Positions 4,582-31,380 of a DNA stretch of 31,624 nucleotides are shown one piece after another. The notes under the pieces are model-generated. The model was not told where the DNA came from. It worked only from the letters and a program-made list of their open reading frames with translations, and did not search any database. Origin of the DNA: a virus (lineage: Duplodnaviria > Caudoviricetes); the IMG/VR virus record IMGVR_UViG_3300027899_000648, positions 1-31,624 of that record, one strand, 5' to 3'. The translations under genes and the position numbers were made by a program. Numbering within the stretch: the stretch's first letter is position 1; each line of letters begins with the position of its first letter.

Positions 4582-5055
4582 ATGGCTCGTCCTTCAAAAT
4601 ATGATCCCGAACAGCATCCACAATGGGCCGAAGGATTAGCCAAACTCGGAAAAACAGAAGCAGAGATCGCGGTTGAATTTGGGGTAAATGTTGATACTAT
4701 CACCAATTGGAAGAAATCACACCCGGAGTTTCTCGTATCCTTAAAGGTGGGTAAATCAGCAGCGGATGTAAAAGTTGAAGCATCTTTGTATAAACGGGCA
4801 TTAGGATATGATTTGGACGTTTTAGAAACAACTGAATATCCTGATGGAGGACTTCAGGTTAAGAAAACAACAAAGCATATCGCACCCGATACAACAGCCC
4901 AAATATTCTGGTTAAAGAACAGGAAACCGGACGAATGGAGAGATAAACAACAGACGGAGATCACCGGGAAAGACGGCGGGCCCATTCTCCTGAACAACCT
5001 ATCAGACGAGGAGGTGGAAAGGCGTGCTCGTGAAATCCTCTCAAAGCGCCAGTGA
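4582..5055 (+). CDS. terS: Terminase small subunit
   Basis: MARPSKY start, HTH (TEAEIAVEFGVNVDTITNWKK), SLYKRALGY, PDTTAQIFWLKNRKPDEWRDK; directly upstream of TerL. Confidence 0.9.
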   Translation: MARPSKYDPEQHPQWAEGLAKLGKTEAEIAVEFGVNVDTITNWKKSHPEFLVSLKVGKSAADVKVEASLYKRALGYDLDVLETTEYPDGGLQVKKTTKHIAPDTTAQIFWLKNRKPDEWRDKQQTEITGKDGGPILLNNLSDEEVERRAREILSKRQ

Positions 5056-6316
5056 TACCGATATACTCCGGGAGTATGCGTCAAGGTGGACGTTCCAGGC
5101 ACATCAAGGACAAATCCCACCGAAGGATAAAGCATGGTTCTGCTACCTCATGCGTAGCGGAAGAGGCGGGGGGAAGACCCGGGCAGGTTCTGAATGGGTA
5201 TTGCAGCGGGTAAGAGACGGATACAAAAGCATTGCTCTAATCGGTGCCAACGCCGCTGACGTTAGAGATATTATGATAGAATTAGGCGAATCATCCATCT
5301 GCAAGGTAGCACGCCCGGATGAGATACCAACCTACGAACCCTCGAAGAGACGTTTAACCTTCCCGAATGGTGCCGTTGCAGTTGCCTTTTCAGATGAAAC
5401 CCCAGACCAATTACGGGGACCACAGACCGACACCGTCTGGATAGACGAGTTAGCCAAATTCAAGAACCCGCAGGAAACATGGGATAACATGATAATGGGT
5501 TTGAGATTAGGCAAGAACCCGCAGGTATTTATTACAACAACACCACGCCCAACGAAATTATTAAAGGAATTACTCAAAGCACCCGATACAATAGACGTTA
5601 GATTCTCAACCTTCGATAATGCAGATAATTTAAGCCCTAAATTCTTGGCGAAAGTAAAAGAGAAATACGAAGGAACCCGGTTAGGCAGGCAGGAACTCGA
5701 AGGGGAAATCCTTGATGACAACCCGTATGCACTATGGCAAAGGGAAACAATCGAAGGGTTACGCATCAGGCCCGACCAATGCCCGCAACTCATCAGGGTT
5801 GTAATAGGTGTAGATCCCGCCGTCACCAGTGGTGAAACTTCAGACGATACCGGGATAATCGCAGCGGGAATGGGAGTTAACGGGCATGGATACATTTTAG
5901 GCGATAATACCATCCACGGAACGCCGCACGATTGGGCATTAGAAGTCGTTAAATCATTCAGGAAATATCAGGCCGATATGGTGATAGGTGAAGTGAATAA
6001 CGGCGGTGATTTAGTAGAAGTCAACATCAGAACGGTAAACCCAAACATCCCGTTTAAATCCGTGCATGCATCCAGGGGAAAGGCAATCAGAGCGGAACCC
6101 GTATCAGCAATGTATGAACAAGGCAGGATTCACCATGTGGGAACCTTCCCGGAACTGGAAGATCAGCTTTGCGAATGGCAACCAGGGGATAAGAGCCCGG
6201 ACCGACTGGATGGGATGGTATGGAGCGTATGGGAACTATTCAACCTTGGGGAAGATACGTTAAGTCAGGAAGTAATCAGCCATTACCCCGGCGATTATTC
6301 CATCAGCCCGATTTGA
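5024..6316 (+). CDS. terL: Terminase large subunit
   Basis: Walker A GRGGGKT, Walker B VWIDE, TTTP coupling motif, RNase H-like IGVDPA and DRLD. Confidence 0.95.
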   Translation: MLVKSSQSASDTDILREYASRWTFQAHQGQIPPKDKAWFCYLMRSGRGGGKTRAGSEWVLQRVRDGYKSIALIGANAADVRDIMIELGESSICKVARPDEIPTYEPSKRRLTFPNGAVAVAFSDETPDQLRGPQTDTVWIDELAKFKNPQETWDNMIMGLRLGKNPQVFITTTPRPTKLLKELLKAPDTIDVRFSTFDNADNLSPKFLAKVKEKYEGTRLGRQELEGEILDDNPYALWQRETIEGLRIRPDQCPQLIRVVIGVDPAVTSGETSDDTGIIAAGMGVNGHGYILGDNTIHGTPHDWALEVVKSFRKYQADMVIGEVNNGGDLVEVNIRTVNPNIPFKSVHASRGKAIRAEPVSAMYEQGRIHHVGTFPELEDQLCEWQPGDKSPDRLDGMVWSVWELFNLGEDTLSQEVISHYPGDYSISPI

Positions 6317-6394
6317 GGATGCAACTATGAACACTACACCACAAACACATTCTAACAAGAAAACTCCGGGAAAAAAAGGTTTTGGAGGCAGGAT

Positions 6395-8995
6395 ATGGCA
6401 GTAAAGAAACCAACCATAAAGGAAACCATCACACAGTTACAGCAACAGGTGCAGGCGGGAGAGAACAACCGCGAACTTCTGGAGGAGGCACTATACGCAG
6501 TAGAGCAGCAACTCATGCAGGATGGATGGATGCAGATCAGCGCAACCTCCGGCAAAGAGTTAACAAAACAGGCATTAGACATTGCGGAGGGATGGGGTAG
6601 AGCGTATTGGATTAAGAACCCGCTGGTAAGGAGAGCCATCGAACTACAAGCCCTATACGTCTTTGCGCAGGGGATGACAATCAAGGCGGAATCGGAGGAG
6701 GTTGATGTTGTCGTTCAGGACTTCATGGAAGACCCGAAGAATTACCTTTCACTCACCAGCCACCAGGCATGGAAGCAGAACGAACGAGCACTCTTCACAA
6801 GTGGAAATAGATTCTTCGTATTCTTCACCAATGAATCCACCGGAGTTGTCAGGGTCCGGACTATCCCGTTCAGCGAGATCCGGGAAGTCATTAAGAATCC
6901 CGAAGACTCCCTTGAGCCGTGGTTCTACCGCAGAGATTACACCGTTTCACCCCTTGACTATAACAGCGGTGCGATTTCAATGCAGATCGAGACGGCGTAT
7001 TATCCCGACTGGCAATACATTCCGGACGATAAACCGGAAACCATCAACAGCAAGCCGATCATGTGGGATAACCCGGTATATCATGTAAAAACCAACTGCC
7101 TTGACGATATGACCTTCGGGATTCCGGAAACCCTGTCAATCACCGATTGGGCTAAAGCATACAAGAGATTCCTGGAGAACCTTGCAACCGTATGGGAAGC
7201 ACAGGCCCGGATAGCGCAGGTCATCACCACCAGCGGAGGCCCGCGAGCAGTTGCAGCGGCGAAGGCGAAATACGAATCCGTAATGGGTGAAACATCAAGA
7301 CTCACAGGTGATAATTTAGACGTTGGCAGGCCGGTAGGAACCACCTTCACCGCATCGGAAAGCGTGAAGATCGAGCCATACCGGACGGGAGGTAGCACAA
7401 CATCAGTAACAGACGGCATCCCGTTAAGGCTCATGGTAGGTTCAGGCAGTGGTATTCCCGACCAGATGCTATCAGCAGACCCGAGCACCGGGAACCTTGC
7501 AACTGCGAAGGCAATGGAACGCCCGCTTGAGTTGCAGTTCCGGGACCGGCAAACCTTATGGGCCGATGTGTGGATGGATATCCTCGAATACGTAATTAAT
7601 CAGTCAATCGCAGCACCGTTAGGCAAACTGCATGACTCGGGAACTGTAACGGTGGACGATGAAGGCAGGGAGATCTACACACTCACGGCAACAGATGAAA
7701 ACGGAGAACCGTTATCAAAAGCAGTATCCGTTACCTTCCCGCCTATCCTTGAACACGATGTAATGGCAACCATCACCGCCCTGAAAACAGCAGCAACGTT
7801 AGACGGTGCGCCACTTGCCGGAATATTCGATATGAAAACCCTTGCAGAGCAGATCTTCCAGGCGTTAAGGATACCAAACGCCGAAGAAATATTAGGCGAG
7901 ATCTTCCCGGACGGAGCCGAAAGGCAGATGCAGACACCGTATGCACAGCAGCAATCTGATAACGCAGCGGCACAGGCAACGGCAATGCAGGCACAAGGCG
8001 ATATTAACAATCAAATTCAGGCGGATGCCGCCATTAACCAAATGGCAGCGGAAGCCGCAAGAGAACTGAAGGAAGTTGCAGCACGTTTTCAGGAAGCCGA
8101 TGAGGAAGGGAGATGGATTACAACCGACAGCGGAAACAAACTACTCATCGGCGGAGACGGAAAGATTGCAGGCGGTAGGAACAAAGGAAAAACATTAGAG
8201 CAGGCGTTCGGTGGAAAGGATAAAGGATCATCCGATACCCAGAAGGGAACGGATAAGGCAACCTCTAAAAGCACAACAAAAACCGCCATAAAAACCACCG
8301 CCACAACGGATAAAGACGTTGCAAAACAGAAAGAGAAATCAGCAAAGGCGATATTCAAACAGAAATCAAAGGATGTTGAAAACAACCTTAATACTCTATA
8401 CTCCTCGAAAGAATACGCCGATAAGAAAGATGTAATGACCAGAGCCGATATTACCCCTGAAGAACTTAACACGGTTGGAGAATACCAGGGTGCAGCATAC
8501 CGGGATATGAACGCCCGCCAACGTGGGAAGGATTTAACCAATTATGAAACGGGTTCCGGGTTAAAAGGAGATACCAAAGCGATAGATGGACACATCGAAC
8601 GGATGAACTCTGTTATCGATAAATCACCACTCCCAGAAGGATTATCATTATATCGCGGGGTGTCTGGATCAGCCGGTGCAAAGATGGATGGTGCGGGTAT
8701 AGGGGATATTATCGAAGATAAAGGATTTCAGAGTTTTACCGCAGATCCAAATATCGCATCCAACTTTGCACGAGGGGTAGCCCGCCCTGTAAAAGATGCA
8801 CCGGCTCAAGATGTAACCCTTGTAATGCAGTATGTTACGGGTAAAAACGATAAAGCACTCCCATTAATCGCGGGAAAAGCCGGGTTTGAAAAAGAATTTG
8901 TAATGAAGCCTGGAAAGTTCAAGGTTATGGAAACAACGGAATATAAAACCGGATATAATAAAGTTACGAAGGTGATCCAACTTGCCGCAGCCTGA
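6395..8995 (+). CDS. Portal protein fused to a C-terminal ADP-ribosyltransferase domain
   Basis: Follows TerL; the N-terminal ~510 aa are portal-like (NPLVRRAIE, GNLATAKAMERP, VTFPPILEHD). The C-terminus has LYRG (R754), FQSFT (S780) and FEKEF (E832/E834), the R-S-E clade signature. Confidence 0.85.
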   Translation: MAVKKPTIKETITQLQQQVQAGENNRELLEEALYAVEQQLMQDGWMQISATSGKELTKQALDIAEGWGRAYWIKNPLVRRAIELQALYVFAQGMTIKAESEEVDVVVQDFMEDPKNYLSLTSHQAWKQNERALFTSGNRFFVFFTNESTGVVRVRTIPFSEIREVIKNPEDSLEPWFYRRDYTVSPLDYNSGAISMQIETAYYPDWQYIPDDKPETINSKPIMWDNPVYHVKTNCLDDMTFGIPETLSITDWAKAYKRFLENLATVWEAQARIAQVITTSGGPRAVAAAKAKYESVMGETSRLTGDNLDVGRPVGTTFTASESVKIEPYRTGGSTTSVTDGIPLRLMVGSGSGIPDQMLSADPSTGNLATAKAMERPLELQFRDRQTLWADVWMDILEYVINQSIAAPLGKLHDSGTVTVDDEGREIYTLTATDENGEPLSKAVSVTFPPILEHDVMATITALKTAATLDGAPLAGIFDMKTLAEQIFQALRIPNAEEILGEIFPDGAERQMQTPYAQQQSDNAAAQATAMQAQGDINNQIQADAAINQMAAEAARELKEVAARFQEADEEGRWITTDSGNKLLIGGDGKIAGGRNKGKTLEQAFGGKDKGSSDTQKGTDKATSKSTTKTAIKTTATTDKDVAKQKEKSAKAIFKQKSKDVENNLNTLYSSKEYADKKDVMTRADITPEELNTVGEYQGAAYRDMNARQRGKDLTNYETGSGLKGDTKAIDGHIERMNSVIDKSPLPEGLSLYRGVSGSAGAKMDGAGIGDIIEDKGFQSFTADPNIASNFARGVARPVKDAPAQDVTLVMQYVTGKNDKALPLIAGKAGFEKEFVMKPGKFKVMETTEYKTGYNKVTKVIQLAAA

Positions 8996-10458: not shown

Positions 10459-13400
10459 ATGACAATTAAAACTGTATTCGAGGACACCCGGTTTCAGTTA
10501 GCAAGAGGCACGGAGCAGGAATGGTCAGATGCAAACCCTATACTGGCAGAGGGTGAAGAGGGCGTTGTATTCTCTGAAGGAAGGGCATCTTATTCTAAAA
10601 TAGGTGATGGAAAAACACGGTGGAATGATTTAGAAATCTTCCACGGGCTCCAGGGAGATCCCGGACCACAGGGTGAACCCGGAGAGACGGGACCGGAAGG
10701 ACAACAGGGAGAAAAAGGCAAACCCGGAGCAGATGGGATAAACGGTAGGGACGGGGTAAACGGCAAACAAGGCAAAGACGGCAAACCCGGAAAGGATGGG
10801 GAACCCGGGGAACCCGGAGATACTGGTGAGAAGGGAGAACCGGGAGCCGGACTTCCACCAGGCGGAGAACCCGGACAAGTGCCGATAAAGAAATCCAAAG
10901 AAGACTTCGATACAGAATGGCAGTATCCAACCGGCGGGGTAATGTGGACAGGTTCATCGGGCGGCGGCGGAGCGTCTGCATTAGACGACCTCACCGATGT
11001 TACCCTTGCCTTGCCACTTGCAGATCATGAAGTCCTTCAATACGATGCAGGCACCCTAAAATGGGTAAATGCCGTTGTTGCAGGAACTGGTGATGTAGTC
11101 GGGCCTGCGGGTGCAACCGCCGATGACATTGCAACCTTCAACGGTGCAACCGGGAAGATCATCAAGGACTCCGGCAAAAAGACTACGGACTTTGCAGCAT
11201 CCATCCACGCACATGCAGGTGCAGATATCACAAGTGGAACAGTTGACGGCGATAGACTTCCTGCGTTATCAGTAACGAAGAAAGGCGGGGTTCCGGCAAC
11301 AGGCATTGTATCAAGCACAAAGTATCTGCGAGACGATGGCACATGGCAAACTCCAGCAGGCGGCGGAGACGTTGCAACTGATGCAATATGGGATGCAGCA
11401 GGAGATCTTGTCATAGGCACAGGCCCGAATACGGCACACCGGTTAGCAGCCGGAGCGACCACCACAATACTCGTTGGAGGCGGAGCGGCAGATCCGGTCT
11501 GGACTGCTGCCACCGGGACAGGAGCACCAGCCCGGGCGGGAGATCCCACCTTCACCGGAACAGTAACCATACCAACCCTTGACACCGGAGTAGCAGCGGC
11601 GGGAGTAACCCTGTCAGGCACAACTCTTGCAGCGGATGGAACCGATGCAGCCATTGACATCAACATCACGCCGAAGGGGACCGGGGAAGTTAACCTGCCT
11701 AAAGTGGATATCGATGCCGGAACCATCGACAACGTAACCATTGCAGGAACGACTGCGTTAAAGTTCGGCCTAACTCCCACGGTAGTAGGAACACCGGATA
11801 ACGGCAGCATCTATTGGAAGGCAACAGAAGAAACACCAACCGTTCAACTGCATGCGAATGTAGCACTCCCATTAGGCCAGAAAGAATTGAGAATGGTGTA
11901 TAATCCTTCACTTACCGATACCATTTCTCGCGGTTCGGCGGTGTACACCAACGGAATAGGCGGTACTCCTACCATCGTAACGGTGGGACTTGCCCAGGCC
12001 AATGCAGTAGCCACTTACCAGGTTCTGGGACTGGCAGCCGAAGACATCCTACCGGAAACACAGGGATTTGTAATCGTTCGAGGGCATCTTGGAGAACTGG
12101 ATACCAGCGGATTCGATGGTTCAGCGGGAGACTCGCTATACCTGTCTGCCACGGTACCCGGAGGAGTAACGTCTACACCACCAGAAGCACCAAACTTTGA
12201 GATAAGAGTTGGAAGGCTCATAGTAAAAAACGCATCAGGAAAAGTAAACGTAAGAATCACGCAGTCATTGTCCCTGGATAACCTTACTGATGTTCAGGCA
12301 GCATCACCAGTCGCAAATCAGTTACTCAAATTCGATGGGGTTTCATGGGTAGCAGCTGATTCGGCGGTAGTCTCGTCAGCAGGTGGGACTGACTTCTACC
12401 CAACTGATGCAGATGGAGTTATTGAGGGAATGACCCGGGCGGCGGCCTGCGTGGTAACGTGGACTAGTCATGGACTAGCAACAGGGTCATTGGTAAAATT
12501 CGAGGGAATAACACAGGCAGGATGGACGGCTTTAAACAGCCCTTCTGGAACCGCAAATGTATTCCATACAATCACATGGATAAGCGCAGACTCCTTCAGC
12601 ATCCCGGTAAATACATCCGGATACGCGGGTGATTACGTCCCGGCAACAGACCCGGGTACCATTTCATCAGGTAAGATATTCTCTGCACCCGATACCACCA
12701 TTGCAACCCAAACCGATTCAGCGCAGTCAACCGGGAGTGTTGAGGCATTAATAGACTCATACTGCACACCATTACCATTAGGCAGAACATCAATCACGGC
12801 GGGAGAATGGGTCTTTAAAACATGGTGCTATGCATCCAGCACATCAGATGTTAATACCGTAGTAATCCGGGTGTATAAGAGAAGTGCAGCGGGAACGGAG
12901 ACATTATTATTCTTCGTGGAAACTGCTGACCTGTCAACCACCAATACCCTGTCACAGATTTCTACAATTCAACCAGCCTATGCAATTCTAGCAACGGATC
13001 ACCTGGTGTTCAAGTATTTCGCCAAATCTAACCGGGGAGGAGGATCTTTCAGAACCTGCTCAATTACCCACAACGGGACAACGAATTACTCATACGTTAA
13101 AACACCGCTGGCATTAGCGCATAACGATTTAGGCGGGTTACAGGGCGGTGGAAGTGGTGCGTATTACCATATTCCGGCACCATCAGCACCAGCAGCCGCA
13201 TTAATGAACGTCCCCGGTATTGTAAACGGTGAGACTACATGGAGCAACAAGGCAATATTCGATGCAACTTCACCAGAGATGAACGGGGCTGTGGCAGCGG
13301 GAACAGCAACAACGGCATCACACCGGGATCACGTTCACCCCGTCGATACCTCAAGAGCACCTACAAACCCACTTGCAACCGATACCCTATGGGATGCAGC

Positions 13401-15144
13401 GGGGGATTTGGTGGTCGGGACAGGACCGAACACGGCGGGTAAATTAGCAAAGGGAACTACCCTGCAAGTCCTGCGTGTTAAGGCGGATGAATCAACTCTC
13501 GAATGGGCGGCCTCGGCAGGTGGTGCAGACCCCGCAACCGCCGTACCCTTACCAAACGGTATTGCAGGACTTGTTGGAACAACAACGAAGTACGCACGTG
13601 AAGATCACGTTCACCCCGGAACACATATCCTCGATCCAATCGGAGTAGAATGGGACCCGAGTTTTTCAGCATCAGCGTCCCTACAGCGAGTGGATGTTTT
13701 CGGTAATATACTATCAGCGATCACACCCCTGTCGTTCACAACCCACCCCACGTACGCAGGCATTAGAAGAGTTAACCTTGCAGATAACGGCACGGTAAAC
13801 GCGGTATACGGAGATGCCGGGTTCAAAGTAGACGGTTCGAACGGGCAGGTAATGGTCCAGGTCCCGAAGTTCTGGTATAAAGCAACAAAAACCGGGACCC
13901 GATATCAATGGCTCATATCAAGCACTGCACAAACGGGGTTCGTTGTTCATCCGGCCTTCATCAAAGACACCGTGGAAAAAGACTATTTCTATCTCTCGGC
14001 CTTTGAGGGTTCAGTCTACGATGTTTCAGCCGCTGCAACAGAGGTAAACACAATCGAAGTTACACACGTGCCGACCTCAAACGGCGCCATGGTGCTGACG
14101 ATCAACACCGGGCCAGCCATCGGAGTCTCGGTAACTACCGCAGACAGTATTGAAAACATTGTTGATAGGATCGTTGCACTCGGTGTGCAGGTTGATGCAT
14201 TCGGAGTAACATGGACTCCTGCAAAAACAAGCAGTAGCACCCTGACCTATACCGCATCTGTTGCCCGGGTTGCAACCACCCTGACGCTGCCAACAGCATA
14301 CGGGGTAACGTCAACCATCACGAAAACCACATCGGGTGCAGGGGGTTATCTCACTGCTGATAATGCCGGAGTCGATGTAACCGCAACCACCGGGGATAAA
14401 CTATGCTCTGTTGCAGCGGTCAAACCCGCATCGTCCAAAAACACCAACATTACCTTACCGAGTTTCAGGACCCTGGCACACAACCGGGGATCCGGATGGG
14501 AGCTCCAGACCTTCAACCAGATCTCTGCAATTCAACTATTATACCTGGTTGAATACGCCAACTTCGATACCCAGTCAACGATAGGTGCAGGGGTCTCTGC
14601 AATAACCGACGATGGATCAACCAACATGGCGATTCCAACAGGTTACACGGCAGGCATCGGGACCAACGGGGTGCAACTCGGAAACACAACCGGGGAATGC
14701 CCCCTTGTTGTCTCCGGGGCGTATGCCGCAAAAGCCATGTCATACAGAGGTGTTGAAAACTTCTATGGGAATATCTGGAAATGGGTCGACGGTATCAACA
14801 TCAAGGCCGACCGGCAGCCATGGATCGCAGACCACGACTATGTCTCCGACCAGTTCTCGCATCCTTATGTGAACACGGGACTTGCAAACGGGGCAACGGA
14901 CGGATATATTTCAAACATCGGGTTTAACAGCACGATGAATTACGGGTTCATCCCGTCTGCCGTTGGCGGTAGTTCGAGCACGTATATCCCGGATTACTAT
15001 TATCAAACGACCGGAAACAAATCGGCGCTGCTCGGTGGTTATTGGTATCATGGCGCGAATGCCGGGGCTTTCAGTCTCGATCTGAATAATGCTGCCTCCT
15101 TTGTCCATCGTACTGTTGGGGCCCGGCTGAGCTTTTGGCCCTAG
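10459..15144 (+). CDS. DGR target: 1561-aa fibre/adhesin with Mtd_N-like N-terminus, collagen, fibre repeats and C-terminal C-type-lectin (FGE-like) domain
   Basis: RGTEQEWSDANPILAEGEEG...KIGDG; Gly-X-Y run; YRGVENFYGNIWKWVDG; C-terminal GGYW...GARL encoded by the VR. Confidence 0.9.
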   Translation: MTIKTVFEDTRFQLARGTEQEWSDANPILAEGEEGVVFSEGRASYSKIGDGKTRWNDLEIFHGLQGDPGPQGEPGETGPEGQQGEKGKPGADGINGRDGVNGKQGKDGKPGKDGEPGEPGDTGEKGEPGAGLPPGGEPGQVPIKKSKEDFDTEWQYPTGGVMWTGSSGGGGASALDDLTDVTLALPLADHEVLQYDAGTLKWVNAVVAGTGDVVGPAGATADDIATFNGATGKIIKDSGKKTTDFAASIHAHAGADITSGTVDGDRLPALSVTKKGGVPATGIVSSTKYLRDDGTWQTPAGGGDVATDAIWDAAGDLVIGTGPNTAHRLAAGATTTILVGGGAADPVWTAATGTGAPARAGDPTFTGTVTIPTLDTGVAAAGVTLSGTTLAADGTDAAIDINITPKGTGEVNLPKVDIDAGTIDNVTIAGTTALKFGLTPTVVGTPDNGSIYWKATEETPTVQLHANVALPLGQKELRMVYNPSLTDTISRGSAVYTNGIGGTPTIVTVGLAQANAVATYQVLGLAAEDILPETQGFVIVRGHLGELDTSGFDGSAGDSLYLSATVPGGVTSTPPEAPNFEIRVGRLIVKNASGKVNVRITQSLSLDNLTDVQAASPVANQLLKFDGVSWVAADSAVVSSAGGTDFYPTDADGVIEGMTRAAACVVTWTSHGLATGSLVKFEGITQAGWTALNSPSGTANVFHTITWISADSFSIPVNTSGYAGDYVPATDPGTISSGKIFSAPDTTIATQTDSAQSTGSVEALIDSYCTPLPLGRTSITAGEWVFKTWCYASSTSDVNTVVIRVYKRSAAGTETLLFFVETADLSTTNTLSQISTIQPAYAILATDHLVFKYFAKSNRGGGSFRTCSITHNGTTNYSYVKTPLALAHNDLGGLQGGGSGAYYHIPAPSAPAAALMNVPGIVNGETTWSNKAIFDATSPEMNGAVAAGTATTASHRDHVHPVDTSRAPTNPLATDTLWDAAGDLVVGTGPNTAGKLAKGTTLQVLRVKADESTLEWAASAGGADPATAVPLPNGIAGLVGTTTKYAREDHVHPGTHILDPIGVEWDPSFSASASLQRVDVFGNILSAITPLSFTTHPTYAGIRRVNLADNGTVNAVYGDAGFKVDGSNGQVMVQVPKFWYKATKTGTRYQWLISSTAQTGFVVHPAFIKDTVEKDYFYLSAFEGSVYDVSAAATEVNTIEVTHVPTSNGAMVLTINTGPAIGVSVTTADSIENIVDRIVALGVQVDAFGVTWTPAKTSSSTLTYTASVARVATTLTLPTAYGVTSTITKTTSGAGGYLTADNAGVDVTATTGDKLCSVAAVKPASSKNTNITLPSFRTLAHNRGSGWELQTFNQISAIQLLYLVEYANFDTQSTIGAGVSAITDDGSTNMAIPTGYTAGIGTNGVQLGNTTGECPLVVSGAYAAKAMSYRGVENFYGNIWKWVDGINIKADRQPWIADHDYVSDQFSHPYVNTGLANGATDGYISNIGFNSTMNYGFIPSAVGGSSSTYIPDYYYQTTGNKSALLGGYWYHGANAGAFSLDLNNAASFVHRTVGARLSFWP
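10645..10851 (+). repeat. Collagen-like Gly-X-Y repeat (23 triplets)
   Basis: GLQGDPGPQGEPGETGPEGQQGEKGKP...GEKGEPGAG. Confidence 0.95.
15022..15129 (+). repeat. DGR variable repeat (VR)
   Basis: 108-nt ungapped match to 15203-15310 with 22 mismatches, all opposite TR adenines. Confidence 0.97.
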
Positions 15145-15184: not shown

Positions 15185-15456
15185 CACGGTTTACCCAGGC
15201 TGACAGCACTACTCAGTAGTAATTGGAATAATGGCACGAATGCCAGGGCTTTCAATCTCAATCTGAATAATGCTACCTCCAATGTCAATCGTAATATTGG
15301 GACCCAGCTACCAGAAGTCATTTTCTTTGCGGAATTAACATGCTGCCTGGATAGACCATGCCTCTTGGCAAAACATAGCAATATTAAACCCTGTATTGGT
15401 AGGGGCGTAATAAACGCTCTCGAAGATTCAGGGATCTCCCAAAGAAGGGGGATGCT
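15185..15456 (+). ncRNA. Predicted structured DGR template RNA (5' arm, TR, 3' spacer)
   Basis: 15188-15200 pairs with 15345-15357; hairpins at 15359-15370, 15389-15433 and 15434-15453. Confidence 0.6.
15203..15310 (+). repeat. DGR template repeat (TR)
   Basis: 35 adenines and 11 AAT codons in the VR frame; lies between the target gene and RT. Confidence 0.97.
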
Positions 15457-16464
15457 ATGAAGCGTTACGGTAACCTTTTTGAGCAGATCTACTCTATGGA
15501 TAACCTTTTTTCAGCACACATCAACGCCAGGAAGGGTAAAACCCATTACAAAGAAGTCCAGATGGTTGATGCAAACCCTGCATTATACCTTACAAATATC
15601 CAGCAGATGCTTGAAGAAAAGACTTACACAACATCAAAATACCGTGTATTCACCAAGATCGATAAGAAGAAAGAGCGTGAAATTTTCGCATTACCGTATT
15701 ACCCGGACCGCATTATCCAGTGGGCAATTGTGCAGGTGTTGGAACCGATATGGATGGATGCGTTCATAAAAGGAACTTACTCCAGCCTTAAGGGACGGGG
15801 GATCCATAAAGCCCTGATGGACTTAAAACACGACCTTCAGAACGGCCATGATACCAGGTATTGCCTGAAATTCGATATTAAAAAATACTATCCCTCAGTA
15901 GACCACGCGATCCTTAAACAGATCATACGGAAGAAGATCAAGGATCCGGAAGTCCTGAAATTACTCGATGAGATCATCGACAGCAACAACGGCGTTCCGA
16001 TTGGCAATTACCTCTCGCAGTATTTTGGCAACTTATACCTGAATGACTTTGACCACTGGATGAAAGAGGAATGCCACGTAAAATATTATTATCGATACTG
16101 CGATGACGTGGTCCTGCTGCAGCCGGATAAGCGGGACCTGCATACCCTGTTCGGTGAAATAAAACGGTACCTGTTTGATAATTTGAAACTGCTGGTGAAA
16201 GAGAACTACCAGATATTTCCAACGAATATCCGTGGTATTGACTTTGTTGGTTATCGGTGCTTTGGTAATTACACGCTGTTACGAAAAACAACCGCTGCCA
16301 ATATGAAGCGCAAATTACAACCCTTGCAGAGTTTTGAAGATCTAACCCATCACGACCAATGCGTAATTGGAAGTTATACCGGCTGGTTGTCCTGGTGTGA
16401 CGGGTACCGGCTATCGAAGAAGTACGTGAGTCCATTGTTATCAAAGGAGGTAAGTTATGGTTAA
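15457..16464 (+). CDS. DGR reverse transcriptase
   Basis: YYPDRIIQWAI, KGRGIH, KFDIKKYYPSVDH, GVPIGNYLSQ (the SQ typical of DGR RTs), YRYCDD, GIDFVGY; 335 aa with no endonuclease or maturase extension. Confidence 0.95.
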   Translation: MKRYGNLFEQIYSMDNLFSAHINARKGKTHYKEVQMVDANPALYLTNIQQMLEEKTYTTSKYRVFTKIDKKKEREIFALPYYPDRIIQWAIVQVLEPIWMDAFIKGTYSSLKGRGIHKALMDLKHDLQNGHDTRYCLKFDIKKYYPSVDHAILKQIIRKKIKDPEVLKLLDEIIDSNNGVPIGNYLSQYFGNLYLNDFDHWMKEECHVKYYYRYCDDVVLLQPDKRDLHTLFGEIKRYLFDNLKLLVKENYQIFPTNIRGIDFVGYRCFGNYTLLRKTTAANMKRKLQPLQSFEDLTHHDQCVIGSYTGWLSWCDGYRLSKKYVSPLLSKEVSYG

Positions 16465-23504: not shown

Positions 23505-23921
23505 ATGGCATCAGCAGGATTCGCAGCACTAACCTCGAAGATAACAGTTGGAGCAGGTGCTACGGAGGTAAAAGAAACCACCAAGATTAATGTTGATTTT
23601 GGAACGGTTGATAGTATCGACATTTCGAACAACAACAGCCCGGACGCAACGGAAGAATCAGTTGCAGGACTCATCAGAACGGGAACGATTGATATTGAAG
23701 GAAACTGGGTTCCAACCGATATAGGACAGGCGGCATTAATCACAGCACTCCAGGCAAGGACTATCGATCTTGCAGTAGTTGTTACCTGTTCGGATTCAGG
23801 AGCTGCAACGTTTACCGGGGTAGGTATGGTAAAGTCATTCAAGCCGTCCTTGCCGTTCGACGGAAAGGCATCGTTCACCAGTTCCATAAAAGTCACCGGG
23901 AAACTGACGTTCGCAGCGTAA
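23505..23921 (+). CDS. Major tail tube protein, short paralog
   Basis: TVDSIDIS...EESVAGLIRTGTIDIEGNW...FTG...SIKVTGK. Confidence 0.85.
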   Translation: MASAGFAALTSKITVGAGATEVKETTKINVDFGTVDSIDISNNNSPDATEESVAGLIRTGTIDIEGNWVPTDIGQAALITALQARTIDLAVVVTCSDSGAATFTGVGMVKSFKPSLPFDGKASFTSSIKVTGKLTFAA

Positions 23922-23935
23922 AGGGGGATTCCTGA

Positions 23936-24661
23936 ATGGTAGCAAGTTCTGGATTCTCTCCATTCGGCTCCACGCTGTTGTGGAACAATACGCCACTGCT
24001 GGAGTTAACGAAGATTTCACCTACTTTCGGCACGGTGGATGAAATAGACATCTCAAATAACGATTCCGCCGATGCTACTGAAGAGATGGTGCCGGGAATA
24101 ATCCGGGTTGGAACGGTAGATGTAGAAGGTAATTTAGTCCCGTCTGATAACCTTGGACAGATAACCACACTCACAGATCTCCAGGGTAGAACCGAACGGG
24201 CAATGGCGGTAATCCTACCAGCCGGCAAAGGCATGATGACCTTTAACGGGACGGCGGTTGCATTCAAGCCAACACTTCCATACGATGGAAAAGCAGGTGT
24301 TGCCATTTCATTCAAGGCGGAAGGAAAGTCAACACTGGTAACAACTCCCGCAACCGGCCTGACAACCCCGTTCTTTGCATTACGTGATAATGGTAGCAAT
24401 GCCGTCACACCGTCACCAGCGGCAGCAGGAGCGGTCTATAACTACCACGCAACACTTGATGCAGCCGATACGCATATTGCCATCCAGCCCACCGCAGCGG
24501 CTGGCACGATCTATGTGAACGGAGTCTTAACGGGAACCGGGGCATGGACGGGAAACATTGCAGTTGCAGCGGGAGCCACGAAGTTATTAATCGTGGAAGC
24601 CCGGGAAACAAATAAGGCAAGTAAAATATATCGCATATACGTAGCGAGGCCATCGGCATGA
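23936..24661 (+). CDS. Tail tube paralog with C-terminal cadherin/Ig-like beta-sandwich
   Basis: N-terminal part aligns with 23505-23921; the extension has YNYHA...IAIQPTAAAGTIYVNG...KIYRIYVAR. Confidence 0.8.
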   Translation: MVASSGFSPFGSTLLWNNTPLLELTKISPTFGTVDEIDISNNDSADATEEMVPGIIRVGTVDVEGNLVPSDNLGQITTLTDLQGRTERAMAVILPAGKGMMTFNGTAVAFKPTLPYDGKAGVAISFKAEGKSTLVTTPATGLTTPFFALRDNGSNAVTPSPAAAGAVYNYHATLDAADTHIAIQPTAAAGTIYVNGVLTGTGAWTGNIAVAAGATKLLIVEARETNKASKIYRIYVARPSA

Positions 24662-27143: not shown

Positions 27144-27520
27144 TGACCGTTACCAACACCTTCGACGGAGTAACCCTGCAAAAGGTTTCTACACCGGACG
27201 GAATAAACTACCCCTTCACCCTTGGAATATCAGAACTTGAAACCGGCGGCTTCGGGCTCCAGGGTTCGGCAACCTACGGCTTCGAATGCACGGTAAAATG
27301 TTATACGTCCACCTATGCCGATATAACCGCCTTTAAGAATAAGATCGGGACGGTGGGAGATCTCGTTCTTGGATCAATCATTTATTCCAACGTAATGATG
27401 AAGTCCTTAAAGGAAGTGCCTGTCTTCCCGGCGGCGGCAGCCTGGTTCTATTATATTGCATTCGTGCAGGGAGTAGTTGCCACGGCAGGAACGGGAACAT
27501 TTAACGGAGGAACACCATAA
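27143..27520 (+). CDS. Distal tail (Dit-like) protein
   Basis: Position after tape measure; TFDGVTL start; beta-rich. Confidence 0.55.
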   Translation: MTVTNTFDGVTLQKVSTPDGINYPFTLGISELETGGFGLQGSATYGFECTVKCYTSTYADITAFKNKIGTVGDLVLGSIIYSNVMMKSLKEVPVFPAAAAWFYYIAFVQGVVATAGTGTFNGGTP

Positions 27521-28026
27521 TGGCAAGAATAGACTTATACCAGTATAGAAGGGGAACAACGGCAGAATGGACGGCAGCCAATCCAGTCCTTGCATTAGGA
27601 GAACCCGGGATAGACACCACGTTAAAGACCATCAAGTTCGGGGATGGAACAACTGCATGGCTATCCCTTGCCGTATGGGCGCAGTCAACCGGGACAATTG
27701 CAGCATGGGTAGAAGTTACCGCAACAACACAGGCCGTGGCAATTAACACCGGATACATTGCCAACAACGCAGACCCCGTAGTCTTAACCTTACCCGCAAC
27801 GGCGGCGGTGGGGTCAGTCGTCCGGGTAGTTGGTAAGGGTGCAGGAGGATGGATAGTAGCGCAGAGGGCGAACCAGTATATCCAGATGGGTAGTTCACTC
27901 TCCACCACGGGGGTCGGGGGGTCGGTCGCATCCTCTGCACAGTTCGACTGCGTGGAACTCCTCTGCACGGTGGCGGACGTCGGGTTCACGGTAATATCCT
28001 CAATGGGTAATTTAACGGTGGTGTGA
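27520..28026 (+). CDS. Tail fibre protein with Mtd_N-like N-terminal domain
   Basis: RRGTTAEWTAANPVLALGEPGIDT...KFGDGTTAW, then LTLPATAAVG...GGW. Confidence 0.75.
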   Translation: MARIDLYQYRRGTTAEWTAANPVLALGEPGIDTTLKTIKFGDGTTAWLSLAVWAQSTGTIAAWVEVTATTQAVAINTGYIANNADPVVLTLPATAAVGSVVRVVGKGAGGWIVAQRANQYIQMGSSLSTTGVGGSVASSAQFDCVELLCTVADVGFTVISSMGNLTVV

Positions 28027-28713: not shown

Positions 28714-29592
28714 ATGGCACTTACCAATGGGGACTTCGAGACGGGGGATTTTACCGGATGGACCCCATACGCATCTGATGTTGTCGTTATCTCATCGGAT
28801 AAGCACGGAGGCACATACTCCTGCCAGTTAGGACCAGCGGGTTATACATTTGACGACCAATGGTTTATTCAGCAGACTGTAAGCCTAACCGATATAGAAA
28901 CAATAACATTCTGGCGGGAGTGGCCTGATGCAACCGCCAATTTCCACTTATACGTTTACCGCGATCCGATGCCGGGTTACGGAATCACCGGTGGAACGAA
29001 ATTATGGGAGGAACATTCAGGAACTTCAGGTGATTGGGGGCAGATTAGTATTGATATCAGTAGCTTGGGATTATCAGGGGATCACCTGTTAAGTTTCTGC
29101 TTGTATTTTAATGGGCCTGGATTATCCCCGTATCCAAAATACGTTTTACTCGATGATATTATTGTTTCAATTCCAGAAGTAACCCCCGTTGCAGCATTTA
29201 CCCAAGATAAAATAACTGGCGGAATCCCCTGCACCGTACAGTTTACCGATACCTCCACGAATACACCAACCGCCTGGAGTTGGGATTTTGATGATGGATC
29301 AGCCCCAGACACCACCCAATCACCGGAGCATGTCTTTACTGATATGGGGGCATTCCATGTTACCCTTACTGCATCAAACGGAGGAGGAAGTGACGTTTCA
29401 GATGCCACCACCATCACCGCCACCGCCGGGCCTGTTGCCTCATTTACGGTTGCCTTTAACGGTGATATTGTTGTATTGACGAATACCACTACCGGGTATC
29501 CGACTCCCACGTATGACTGGGACTTCGGGGATGGTTCAATTCATGCCACGACCACGAATGCCTCTCATAAATATCCAAAGTCCGGGGGATAA
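28714..29592 (+). CDS. Adhesin-like protein: carbohydrate-binding-like jelly roll, one complete and one incomplete PKD domain
   Basis: LTNGDFETGDFTGW; PVAAFT...VQFTDTS...WSWDFDDG...VTLTASNGGG; the second PKD (YDWDFGDG...HKYPKSGG) stops early. Confidence 0.8.
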   Translation: MALTNGDFETGDFTGWTPYASDVVVISSDKHGGTYSCQLGPAGYTFDDQWFIQQTVSLTDIETITFWREWPDATANFHLYVYRDPMPGYGITGGTKLWEEHSGTSGDWGQISIDISSLGLSGDHLLSFCLYFNGPGLSPYPKYVLLDDIIVSIPEVTPVAAFTQDKITGGIPCTVQFTDTSTNTPTAWSWDFDDGSAPDTTQSPEHVFTDMGAFHVTLTASNGGGSDVSDATTITATAGPVASFTVAFNGDIVVLTNTTTGYPTPTYDWDFGDGSIHATTTNASHKYPKSGG

Positions 29593-31380
29593 ATGACTTA
29601 CACGATCACCCTTACGGCAACCAATTCAGAGGGTACGGATACGGCAACCTACACCCTTACGGATCTGAACGAGGAGATCCTTTCACATTCCGCGGTTTCA
29701 ACCACCGTATCAAAGGGAATAAACGATCTGATGTGGCTGTGTCAGATTGAATACGATGGGCATCCGGCAATCGACTCTTCCGATATCACCGTCTATATGA
29801 AGGACCATACCGATACCGATCAACTGGTATTCATGGGGTATATCCCTAATCCCGCATATAGGACGCAGGAGGGGGGAAATAAAACAACAGTAACGGCGTA
29901 TTCTTATTTCTGGTATCTTACAAAACAATATCTGCCGGTATTAGAATCAGACGGGACGGGACCCCGAAACACACTATTCTGTAATGATACTACCGCAGCT
30001 GTAACACCTACGGTTGATATTTACAACCTCCGTCCTGGAATGACAACCGTAGAAATCGAGGAATCTGTTTATATTAATATTAAAAAATATGTTGAGTATC
30101 TCCTGGGGGGCATATCATCCACAACGATAAACGGACTTACTATCCACGAAGTTGTTGATTGTGATGATTGGAACGATGGAACGATAAAAAACAAGGGGTT
30201 TGATTTCGTCCGGGAAGATATCACCGTCATGGATGCAATCCAGGTGATAAAGGAGTATTTAAGTTATTATTTCATGGAGGTATTCTATAATTCCTCCACG
30301 GATCTCGATTATGCCATTTTCGTTCCAGATAGTGCAACCGATGACCAATTGCATGTGCCGGAAAAAGTAACATTCACATGGCCCGATGCGTATGTTGTCG
30401 GACCGGTATATGGTGATAATAAATTAGGTGAAATGTGCAACCGGGTTAGAGTCAGATGTTCCCCTGGCATCCTTACCAAGACCTTTACCTCGACCTCCTC
30501 ACCTGATACATTTACCCTTTACGTTGCCAACCCAGGGAGAGCGGATAGCTGCACAGTATCAGTCCAGCACGGTTCTACCGGTTACATAGATGATAATGCA
30601 CCGGCCTATACCGGTGTAACGTATTACGCAGGGGATATGGTAACATATAGTGGTGTGGTCTATGAGTGTATCTTATCCTGTTCCGGGCGAACCCCTGATG
30701 TAAACCCAACCTACTGGCAGGTTTACGAACTCCCGGAAGTCACGGAGCATTTATCCGGTGGTGCGGTGGACTGGGTAACCTGTAATAATCTCCATTACAC
30801 TCCAACACATGCCCACGCTGATATCGTTACGGTTACCTATCTCCCTGATGTGGATTACTATGAGCAGTCAATTCAAACCGCAGCGGTAACGGCGGGAACG
30901 GAAAAACCAATTGATGCACCTCCGGTTTACGATACCGATGGATCTCTAGGACTTACCACGCAGGACGAAGTGGACGAATACTGCAATGCGCTATGGGAAC
31001 TCTACCGGACTGATTCAAGTATCTATCATGCAACACTTTTAAAAAGAACAGACTTACGTTTAATGCAACTAGTTAAGTTCGTAGGGTATGATAAGATTCC
31101 AGAGGATGATATGAGGATAACCCATATCACGTACAGAAAAGGACCTAATGGTATATTTGTCGATATTCAATGCACCCTTGATAAGATTCTCACGTTAAAC
31201 CAGATACTCAAGGAAAGCACTACCATATCAGACGTTAATTTAATCGAACGGATTATTGATAAGAAAATAAAACAGACGAATAATGAAAAGACCATGAAGG
31301 CGTGGGTGGCGAAAGTCCAGGGAGATGTTGCAACCGTAAAGACTGACGCAGGAGTATTCGTGGAGAAAGAGAACGTATGA
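29593..31380 (+). CDS. Tail tip/baseplate hub-like protein with N-terminal PKD strands and an internal CBM5/12-like module
   Basis: LVFMGYI...TTVTAYS, CNRVRVRC, MRITHITY; insert YYAGDMVTYSGVVYEC...P...PTYW. Confidence 0.65.
   Translation: MTYTITLTATNSEGTDTATYTLTDLNEEILSHSAVSTTVSKGINDLMWLCQIEYDGHPAIDSSDITVYMKDHTDTDQLVFMGYIPNPAYRTQEGGNKTTVTAYSYFWYLTKQYLPVLESDGTGPRNTLFCNDTTAAVTPTVDIYNLRPGMTTVEIEESVYINIKKYVEYLLGGISSTTINGLTIHEVVDCDDWNDGTIKNKGFDFVREDITVMDAIQVIKEYLSYYFMEVFYNSSTDLDYAIFVPDSATDDQLHVPEKVTFTWPDAYVVGPVYGDNKLGEMCNRVRVRCSPGILTKTFTSTSSPDTFTLYVANPGRADSCTVSVQHGSTGYIDDNAPAYTGVTYYAGDMVTYSGVVYECILSCSGRTPDVNPTYWQVYELPEVTEHLSGGAVDWVTCNNLHYTPTHAHADIVTVTYLPDVDYYEQSIQTAAVTAGTEKPIDAPPVYDTDGSLGLTTQDEVDEYCNALWELYRTDSSIYHATLLKRTDLRLMQLVKFVGYDKIPEDDMRITHITYRKGPNGIFVDIQCTLDKILTLNQILKESTTISDVNLIERIIDKKIKQTNNEKTMKAWVAKVQGDVATVKTDAGVFVEKENV

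Follow-up and report, generated by a model that had tools for sequence, protein, structure and literature searches.

Two adjoining genes on the + strand of a record from an uncultured tailed virus (IMG/VR IMGVR_UViG_3300027899_000648; the whole stretch of 31,624 bases, ~75% complete, is referred to here as the window) divide a single PKD domain between them. The upstream gene (28714..29592) encodes a 292-residue protein, predicted to be an adhesin or accessory protein, and the downstream gene (29593..31380) encodes a 595-residue tail-tip hub. From sequence comparisons and structure models the two proteins are predicted, with a probability of roughly 0.8, to be made separately and to join by rebuilding the PKD domain. 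This appears to be the best explanation for a conserved cut point, a relative in which the two genes are out of frame, conservation of both halves, fused sister proteins, an independent further split among hubs of this family and a crystallographic precedent. To that extent the sequence-only reading of this DNA, which had proposed that the N-terminal hairpin of the hub completes the upstream domain, is upheld; the analogy that it drew with pilus complementation is replaced by a nearer one with Tuc2009.

The 292-residue open reading frame ends with KYPKSGG and the 595-residue frame begins with MTYTITLTATN. Positions 29584-29601 read GGG GGA TAA ATG ACT TAC (then ACG), with TAA at 29590-29592 and ATG from 29593, leaving a gap of zero and a frame shared by both open reading frames. 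The junction (29590..29595, +) falls in the E-F loop of the PKD domain. The letters, the open reading frames and profile searches all confirm the earlier claim that the domain is spread over two genes by an in-frame TAA-ATG. When the stop was read as X, the PKD_4 score rose from 68.9 to 78.7 bits and the PKD score from 55.4 to 69.5 bits (Pfam), and the composite of both genes passed the curated PKD profile cut-off (PF00801/PF18911) across the junction. A six-frame search of the virus record returned a PKD_4 match at 29500-29658 of 40 bits (cut-off 27) with one TAA within it.

The upstream protein begins with a jelly-roll domain (residues 1-155; 28714..29178, +) resembling carbohydrate-binding modules (CBM) of families 4/9, as indicated by a CBM_4_9 Pfam match (E 4.5e-5, under the curated cut-off) and an Atlas structure match to a CBM_4_9 cluster (template modelling score, TM, 0.81); the predicted local distance difference test score (pLDDT) of this domain was low in the structure model of the window protein. 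The protein is accordingly annotated as a predicted sugar-binding protein. A complete first PKD domain follows (residues 156-238; 29179..29427, +), recognized by PKD_4 of Pfam and by structure, matching an archaeal surface-layer PKD domain (1l0q) with Z 13.5 and a root-mean-square deviation of 1.0 over 81 aligned residues. The second PKD domain (residues 239-292; 29428..29589, +) comprises strands A-E only according to profiles and the model, is without strands F-G and is the predicted acceptor.

Pfam and PHROG scans of the 595-residue protein returned no hub family match, and its assignment as a hub, already made in the sequence-only reading, is confirmed by the modelled fold. Foldseek searches of the PDB with the AlphaFold2 (AF2) model (pLDDT 88.5), which consists of an N-terminal hairpin, a short helix and a core, matched the core to the baseplate protein gp44 of Mu (best E 4e-10), the MuSo2 43 kDa tail protein, Tal and VgrG hubs, with E values from 4e-10 to 1e-7 for the Mu, MuSo2, 80alpha, VgrG and HFTV1 tail hubs, consistent with a gp27/gp44/Tal-like fold. 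By analogy with the known gp27/Tal family, the hub is probably trimeric at the tail tip. The hairpin (residues 3-22; 29599..29658, +), with strands at 3-11 and 14-22, corresponds in the models to PKD strands F and G and is the predicted donor; its pLDDT was 83-92 when the hub was modelled alone. A short helix or linker (residues 23-32; 29659..29688, +) joins it to the core. In a model of the read-through chain with X at the stop, the same strands (295-304 and 307-316) were the last two of one sandwich formed by residues 241-316 with a pLDDT of 90-97.

A search with the hub yielded 7 relatives out of 7,994 candidates scored, and both the fused and the split homologs whose existence the sequence-only reading had put forward as a check were found. 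Proteins P0002 and P0003 start at the hairpin, whereas P0004, P0006 and P0007 carry a whole PKD domain fused to the hub, as does P0132 of locus L003; P0008 is distant. In locus L001, whose hub (P0002) is 64% identical to that of the window, the cut is at the same point; the upstream gene encodes the same N-terminal half followed by ~200 unrelated residues, TGA, one base and the ATG of the hub, so that the junction TGA-T-ATG is +1 and out of frame. The cut is conserved between the window and L001 while the frame is not. The start of P0003 and the end of P0030 also coincide with the cut point, as judged from protein ends only. In the 120 matches listed for the upstream protein, P0030 is the sole entry besides the query whose last residue coincides with the cut. 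A DNA pattern for hairpin-starting hubs found L001 only, and a generic PKD DNA pattern found 10 loci, of which 8 were read (2 overlapped others); 10 of the 11 matches run on as intact PKD domains, and the remaining one is truncated where its contig ends. Relatives were not found in genome contigs queried with hub or tail-tube alignments, in the annotated phage collection, or in viral contigs searched with a single hub or P0255. Two candidate hubs without a hairpin were considered. P0005 was rejected, its apparent start being a start call beside a contig gap where P0131 shows a continuous loop, and P0137 lacks the hairpin on a contig of 657 bp with an unsure start.

Since L001 splits at the same point out of frame, the split is not an error, and an error of sequencing or assembly has a negligible chance. 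The window comes from a single source sample at a depth of ~10. The same junction letters occur in a contig (depth 9.8) of the sole public run holding the stretch, a comparison of contig letters rather than raw reads with a run that may itself be the source of the window. Against an error, the same start is found in L001 and P0003, and an entire codon as well as substitutions separate the junction from its counterpart in the fused form.

The frame of L001 also bears on stop-codon read-through or recoding, named earlier as the alternative, by which a fused 888-residue protein would be produced at some rate. The in-frame, gapless junction would permit it, and the fused chain folds and has the architecture of P0006 and P0132. 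The in-frame stop is not conserved in the relatives, however, as L001 (+1) and the CBM-split locus L056 described below (-1 overlap) are both out of frame, and the ATG right after the stop is common to L001, where it is necessarily a start. Of the 22 further complete genes listed, 9 end in TAA, which is at odds with genome-wide reassignment of this codon. Gapless junctions also stand at ordinary gene boundaries of the relatives. Because L001 is out of frame, read-through is improbable, and separate proteins remain the preferred reading.

The abutment itself, which the sequence-only reading had treated as special, is ordinary for this virus family: zero-gap, in-frame stop-ATG junctions occur at 7 other, normal gene boundaries in 6 related loci scanned, and one of the 7 reads almost GGGA-TAA-ATG as well. 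The proposal that a 9-nt insertion created the junction also fares poorly. Taking out the 9 nt does give the 5-residue E-F loop seen in most generic PKD repeats (265 of 271). In the nearest fused relatives (P0132/L003 and P0004), however, the loop has 7 residues, the window with its stop counted being one codon longer, and the loop of L003 (PSSGGAS ahead of strand F) has a G-run of its own. An insertion of 9 nt is therefore not the likely history, as the loops differ by one codon. Across the hub-proximal PKD domains of six fused proteins the loop has 7, 5, 4, 7, 8 and 5 residues and is thus labile at this position. The GGGGGA run (29584..29589, +), a possible short-spaced Shine-Dalgarno site, occurs in a fused relative too. 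Phase variation of the run was considered and rejected by reasoning, as an altered run length would leave the hub frame.

Conservation of both halves was examined by comparing the window with L001, where pS and pN denote the proportions of synonymous and nonsynonymous change. For strand F (hub codons 2-11), 9 of 10 residues are identical (pS 0.55, pN 0.05), compared with 80 of 98 in the hub core (pS 0.81, pN 0.12) and 27 of 49 in the N-terminal half (pS 0.66, pN 0.31). The two N-terminal halves are 25/52 and 27/49 identical to the fused form, similar to the value between window and L001. In simulations of drift, the identity of strand F (9/10) was reached in 0 of 20,000 runs at p=0.57, in 0.2% at p=0.35 and in 5.8% at p=0.2; for the whole hairpin (14/21) the values were 0, 1.1% and 41%. 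On the whole-hub tree three split-type proteins group with the fused P0004 (89/95), which is sister to the split P0002 with support of 100/100. A clade of split forms only was not rejected on the first 260 hub residues (p 0.22).

Several results weigh against the proposed joining of the two proteins. The complete immunoglobulin (Ig)-like sandwich was obtained in cis only, in the read-through model, and that model was guided by intact PKD homologues in the alignment and indicates compatibility only. At the DNA level the PKD splits number two, the window and L001; P0030, whose contig is 986 bp long, may owe its end to truncation. The turn and strand G (hub codons 12-22) are identical at 5 of 11 positions (pN 0.44, pS 0.60). 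The drift test presumes a single origin of the split and is less discriminating when divergence is low (at p=0.2 the probability is 0.058 for strand F and 0.41 for the hairpin). A split-only clade was rejected on the whole hub (p-AU 2.8e-5), so the conservation may have been inherited from recent fused ancestors, and several separate splits would weaken the argument from conservation. The ~200 residues added in L001 might complete its half-domain in cis, where a second match to the N-terminal half (residues 145-194, 9.5 bits) is not significant.

These points bear most directly on the possibility that the halves are vestigial, the gene having broken, the hub working alone and the half-domains being not yet eroded. 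The N-terminal parts of the hub family vary widely and many members have none, so that the hub core is independent of the hairpin and needs none; strand G is weakly conserved, the absence of a split clade on the whole hub allows the splits to be recent, and accessories of the BppA type are non-essential in Tuc2009 (PMC9692632). Vestigial halves are nevertheless unlikely. The window and L001 have the ATG-ACT start in common, strand F is intact although 55-60% of the synonymous sites of the hairpin have changed, the N-terminal half is without decay, and the pattern recurs with a CBM domain at several tree positions. 

On the favoured reading, the common Met-Thr start is consistent with one split and a subsequent re-fusion or recombination. 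In such a history the ancestor would have been a fused CBM-PKD-hub protein whose E-F loop had lengthened and then acquired a stop and a start, the split being tolerated because the halves re-associate, as proposed. The initial gain may have been nil, as the stoichiometry would be that of the fused form, and the free C-terminus would be a later opportunity, one that L001 may have used for its 200-residue addition. Either at least one lineage (P0004) would then have become fused again, or the gene was split on more than one occasion.

The halves may instead be folded and under selection yet pair with other partners: the hairpins could pack against the hub trimer or against one another, and the half-PKD could form a dimer or bind another tail protein. 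The confident prediction of the hairpin in the hub alone is compatible with this, and the partner in L001 is ambiguous; the ~200-residue addition that follows its half-PKD (L001 7244-7999) had no PHROG or NCBIfam match, scored below 0.8 in the Atlas search and was modelled with low confidence, and no relatives of it were found. The two halves, however, lie side by side, complement each other exactly and are intact in the fused sisters, and a scan of the window (a record ~75% complete) and of related loci turned up no further F-G donor or N-half acceptor. Other partners have a slight chance. Each genome examined, in incomplete records, yielded a single acceptor and a single donor, and there is thus no sign of alternative adhesins within the virion. 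The notion of an exchangeable adhesin, part of the sequence-only reading, is not borne out by this count; the modules do differ between lineages, but fused relatives exchange their N-terminal modules as well.

A second domain appears to be split in the same manner elsewhere in the family. A profile search returned 205 hub-family representatives, the best 150 of which were listed, and 52 new viral loci were found with P0030, 7 of them carrying a hub-family gene. In locus L056 a gene at 5001-5450 encodes a 149-residue CBM4/9 protein (28.5 bits, above the cut-off) that ends after the penultimate strand of the domain, and the hub gene follows at 5450-7129, beginning with MTTYTNTIYLDDF at a TAATG overlap (-1, out of frame). 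The segment MTTYTNTIYLDDF corresponds to the strand that closes intact CBM domains as YVLLDDI, FYVDDI or VYFDDV. In related modules the last CBM strand has an aspartate that binds a structural calcium. Both proteins of the L056 pair are on record from several assemblies. The DNA context of the CBM split is available for L056 and L057 only, two nearly identical loci that differ at 1 base in 2,840. L056 has a fused counterpart in P0217, with 63% identity over the hub and 30% over the CBM, and the cut in L056 maps between the last two strands of its CBM. In a quick tree of 33 rows chosen from the family, L056 is the sister of P0217.

A whole CBM is present in 12 of 147 hub representatives, and 5 of the 147 N-termini scored at least 16 with a profile of the last strand; in addition to L056, four of the representatives are counted as starting with that strand. 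Control scores at this level were 0 of 119 for N-termini of PKD proteins, 8 of 4,410 for shuffled sequences and 2 of 1,862 for windows of the hub body. The threshold was picked after the scores were seen and P0153, among the five, is a false positive, both of which count against the second split as support. The five CBM-strand hubs require 5 state changes on the 33-row tree and lie apart from the PKD-split group. A BLAST comparison of 20 short hub leaders with 88 long upstream parts picked up the leaders of PKD type and missed those of CBM type, which required a position profile. The 52 loci contained 97 matches to the PKD N-terminal half, some overlapping, with 25 flagged by a strict pattern. 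On reading the flagged matches, only the L001 copy and L069 were found to leave the fold at the E-F loop; the rest were intact save five proteins that end after strand F (L030 5955, L025 457, L037 2987 and 3457, and L036 3010), in which no donor strand was seen in the next gene. Nor was one seen in the gene after L069 5127, a PKD protein stopping in the E-F loop; all six of these PKD-repeat proteins are on unrelated viral contigs. The comparisons suggest that one hub family has split two unrelated folds, PKD and CBM, at the same end of the hub.

Leaders at this end of the hub vary in other ways. P0255, P0281, P0282 and P0284 are hubs >90% identical with three different short leaders, one of them the last CBM strand; three leaders on such similar hubs would fit swapping of cassettes. 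The hubs P0186, P0242 and P0253 have short beta-like leaders that may be donor strands of further folds, and the leader of P0186 matches a repeat within the long N-terminal part of P0250. A contig of 44.9 kb carries two hub variants (L002 1-1639 and L003 7035-9557), with junction DNA common to both ends; the assembly has probably combined two strains of a circular genome.

The principle of such a joint is already known from a crystal structure of Tuc2009, in which a 25-residue hairpin of the baseplate protein BppU completes the sheet of the last Ig-like domain of BppA, a 286-residue accessory protein with a CBM4-like domain, the composite resembling a titin domain (PMC4742702). BppA improves Tuc2009 infection yet is dispensable (PMC9692632). 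The likeness is close: the acceptor encoded in the window is of similar length, has a CBM4-like domain and ends in an incomplete Ig-like domain, and a two-strand donor hairpin is predicted at hub residues 3-22. The donor here is the N-terminus of the hub, unlike the C-terminal extension of BppU, and the present case differs further in its PKD domain, colinear gene order, probably archaeal host, fused sisters and the fact that the CBM itself is also split. As predicted, the present joint works like that of BppU and BppA but is not a member of that system; neither protein was among the matches listed in fold searches of the read-through model, lists that were full of other Ig folds. What is new here is the CBM split in distant hubs of the same family together with the series of fused and split forms.

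In chaperone-usher pili an N-terminal extension completes the incomplete Ig-like fold of a neighbouring subunit, and the predicted arrangement resembles this. It differs in that two strands (F and G) rather than one would be donated in the PKD case and no polymer would form, the donor being on the hub and the acceptor on the upstream protein (again in a record ~75% complete). In the CBM case one strand would be donated, but into a jelly-roll. No chaperone or usher gene was found among the 28 open reading frames of the window scanned with Pfam, many of which had no match at all. The hubs gp27, Mu gp44 and Tal share with the present one the fold, the position 3' of the tape-measure gene and variable adhesin modules; unlike 'evolved' hubs with fused carbohydrate-binding modules, the modules here are N-terminal and some are joined through a split domain, by prediction non-covalently. 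The open-licence literature, subscription papers and supplements aside, yielded no report of a hub whose N-terminus belongs to a split PKD or CBM, or of this virus group, and the available portions of PMC13252515 and PMC13370021 contain no mention of split domains.

Termination-reinitiation offers a plausible route to separate translation. In Haloferax, reinitiation is efficient at gaps in the range of 0, +1 and -1 nt, and abutting pairs of this kind are enriched for subunits of heteromeric complexes (PMC10666635). The three DNA-verified junctions have gaps of 0, +1 and -1 and fall within the efficient range, so translation of the two proteins is likely to be separate and probably coupled, by reinitiation or from the short-spaced Shine-Dalgarno site. 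Short gaps are common across this operon and are not specific evidence. Strand F contributes core residues of the PKD sandwich, and the half domain is therefore expected to need the hairpin in order to fold. The F-G hairpin of the hub would then complete the beta-sandwich at the end of the 292-residue protein, and up to three predicted carbohydrate-binding arms would hang on the tail tip, one CBM-PKD arm per hub subunit, in a 3:3 stoichiometry modelled on the known gp27/Tal hubs and with a possible role in host attachment.

A broader interpretation, which is tentative and held with less than even confidence, is that the hub N-terminus is a general strand-donor plug repeatedly fitted with the terminal strand or strands of the upstream domain (the PKD hairpin, the last CBM strand and perhaps others), that fused and split states interconvert between sister lineages, and that adhesin and leader swap as a cassette to change host range. 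If this were true, the family would supply a natural set of orthogonal peptide-protein couplers across unrelated folds. On the main reading, the predicted donor leaders of 11-22 residues are candidate natural peptide tags. Relatives 53-65% identical give a testable series from covalent to proposed non-covalent joints, made up of fused forms, split forms, a split form that gained a domain and, probably, forms that were fused again. The main reading would also explain many truncated-looking small 'hypothetical' tail genes, and it predicts the proteins that decorate the tail tip of poorly known viruses that probably infect methanogens. The hint to the host is that the contig of the relative L003 has proteins labelled as a Methanoregula sp. 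metagenome-assembled genome by NCBI, a binning label and not proof; the host is probably an archaeal methanogen.

Other features were noted in the window, in which Pfam identified terminase, capsid, tail-tube and tail-terminator genes. The hub has a CBM5/12-like insert (residues 341-376; 30613..30720, +) that among close relatives is present only in P0002 as well. A diversity-generating retroelement lies among the head genes, outside the tail module, with a variable repeat at 15025-15128, a template repeat at 15206-15309 and a reverse transcriptase at 15457-16464. The variable repeat is at the 3' end of a 1561-residue collagen/fibre gene (10459-15144), and 19 of 19 mismatches are at adenines of the template. 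An 866-residue gene after the terminase (6395-8995), in the portal position although not confirmed as such, has an ADP-ribosyltransferase-like region at residues 678-759 (E 5.8e-6) and is followed by a MuF-like gene. Two similar, adjoining tail-tube-like genes (23505-23921 and 23936-24661), the second with a cadherin-like C-terminus, are kept as a pair in relatives. A gene with an Mtd N-terminal domain (27520-28026) is located between the tape-measure region and the split pair.

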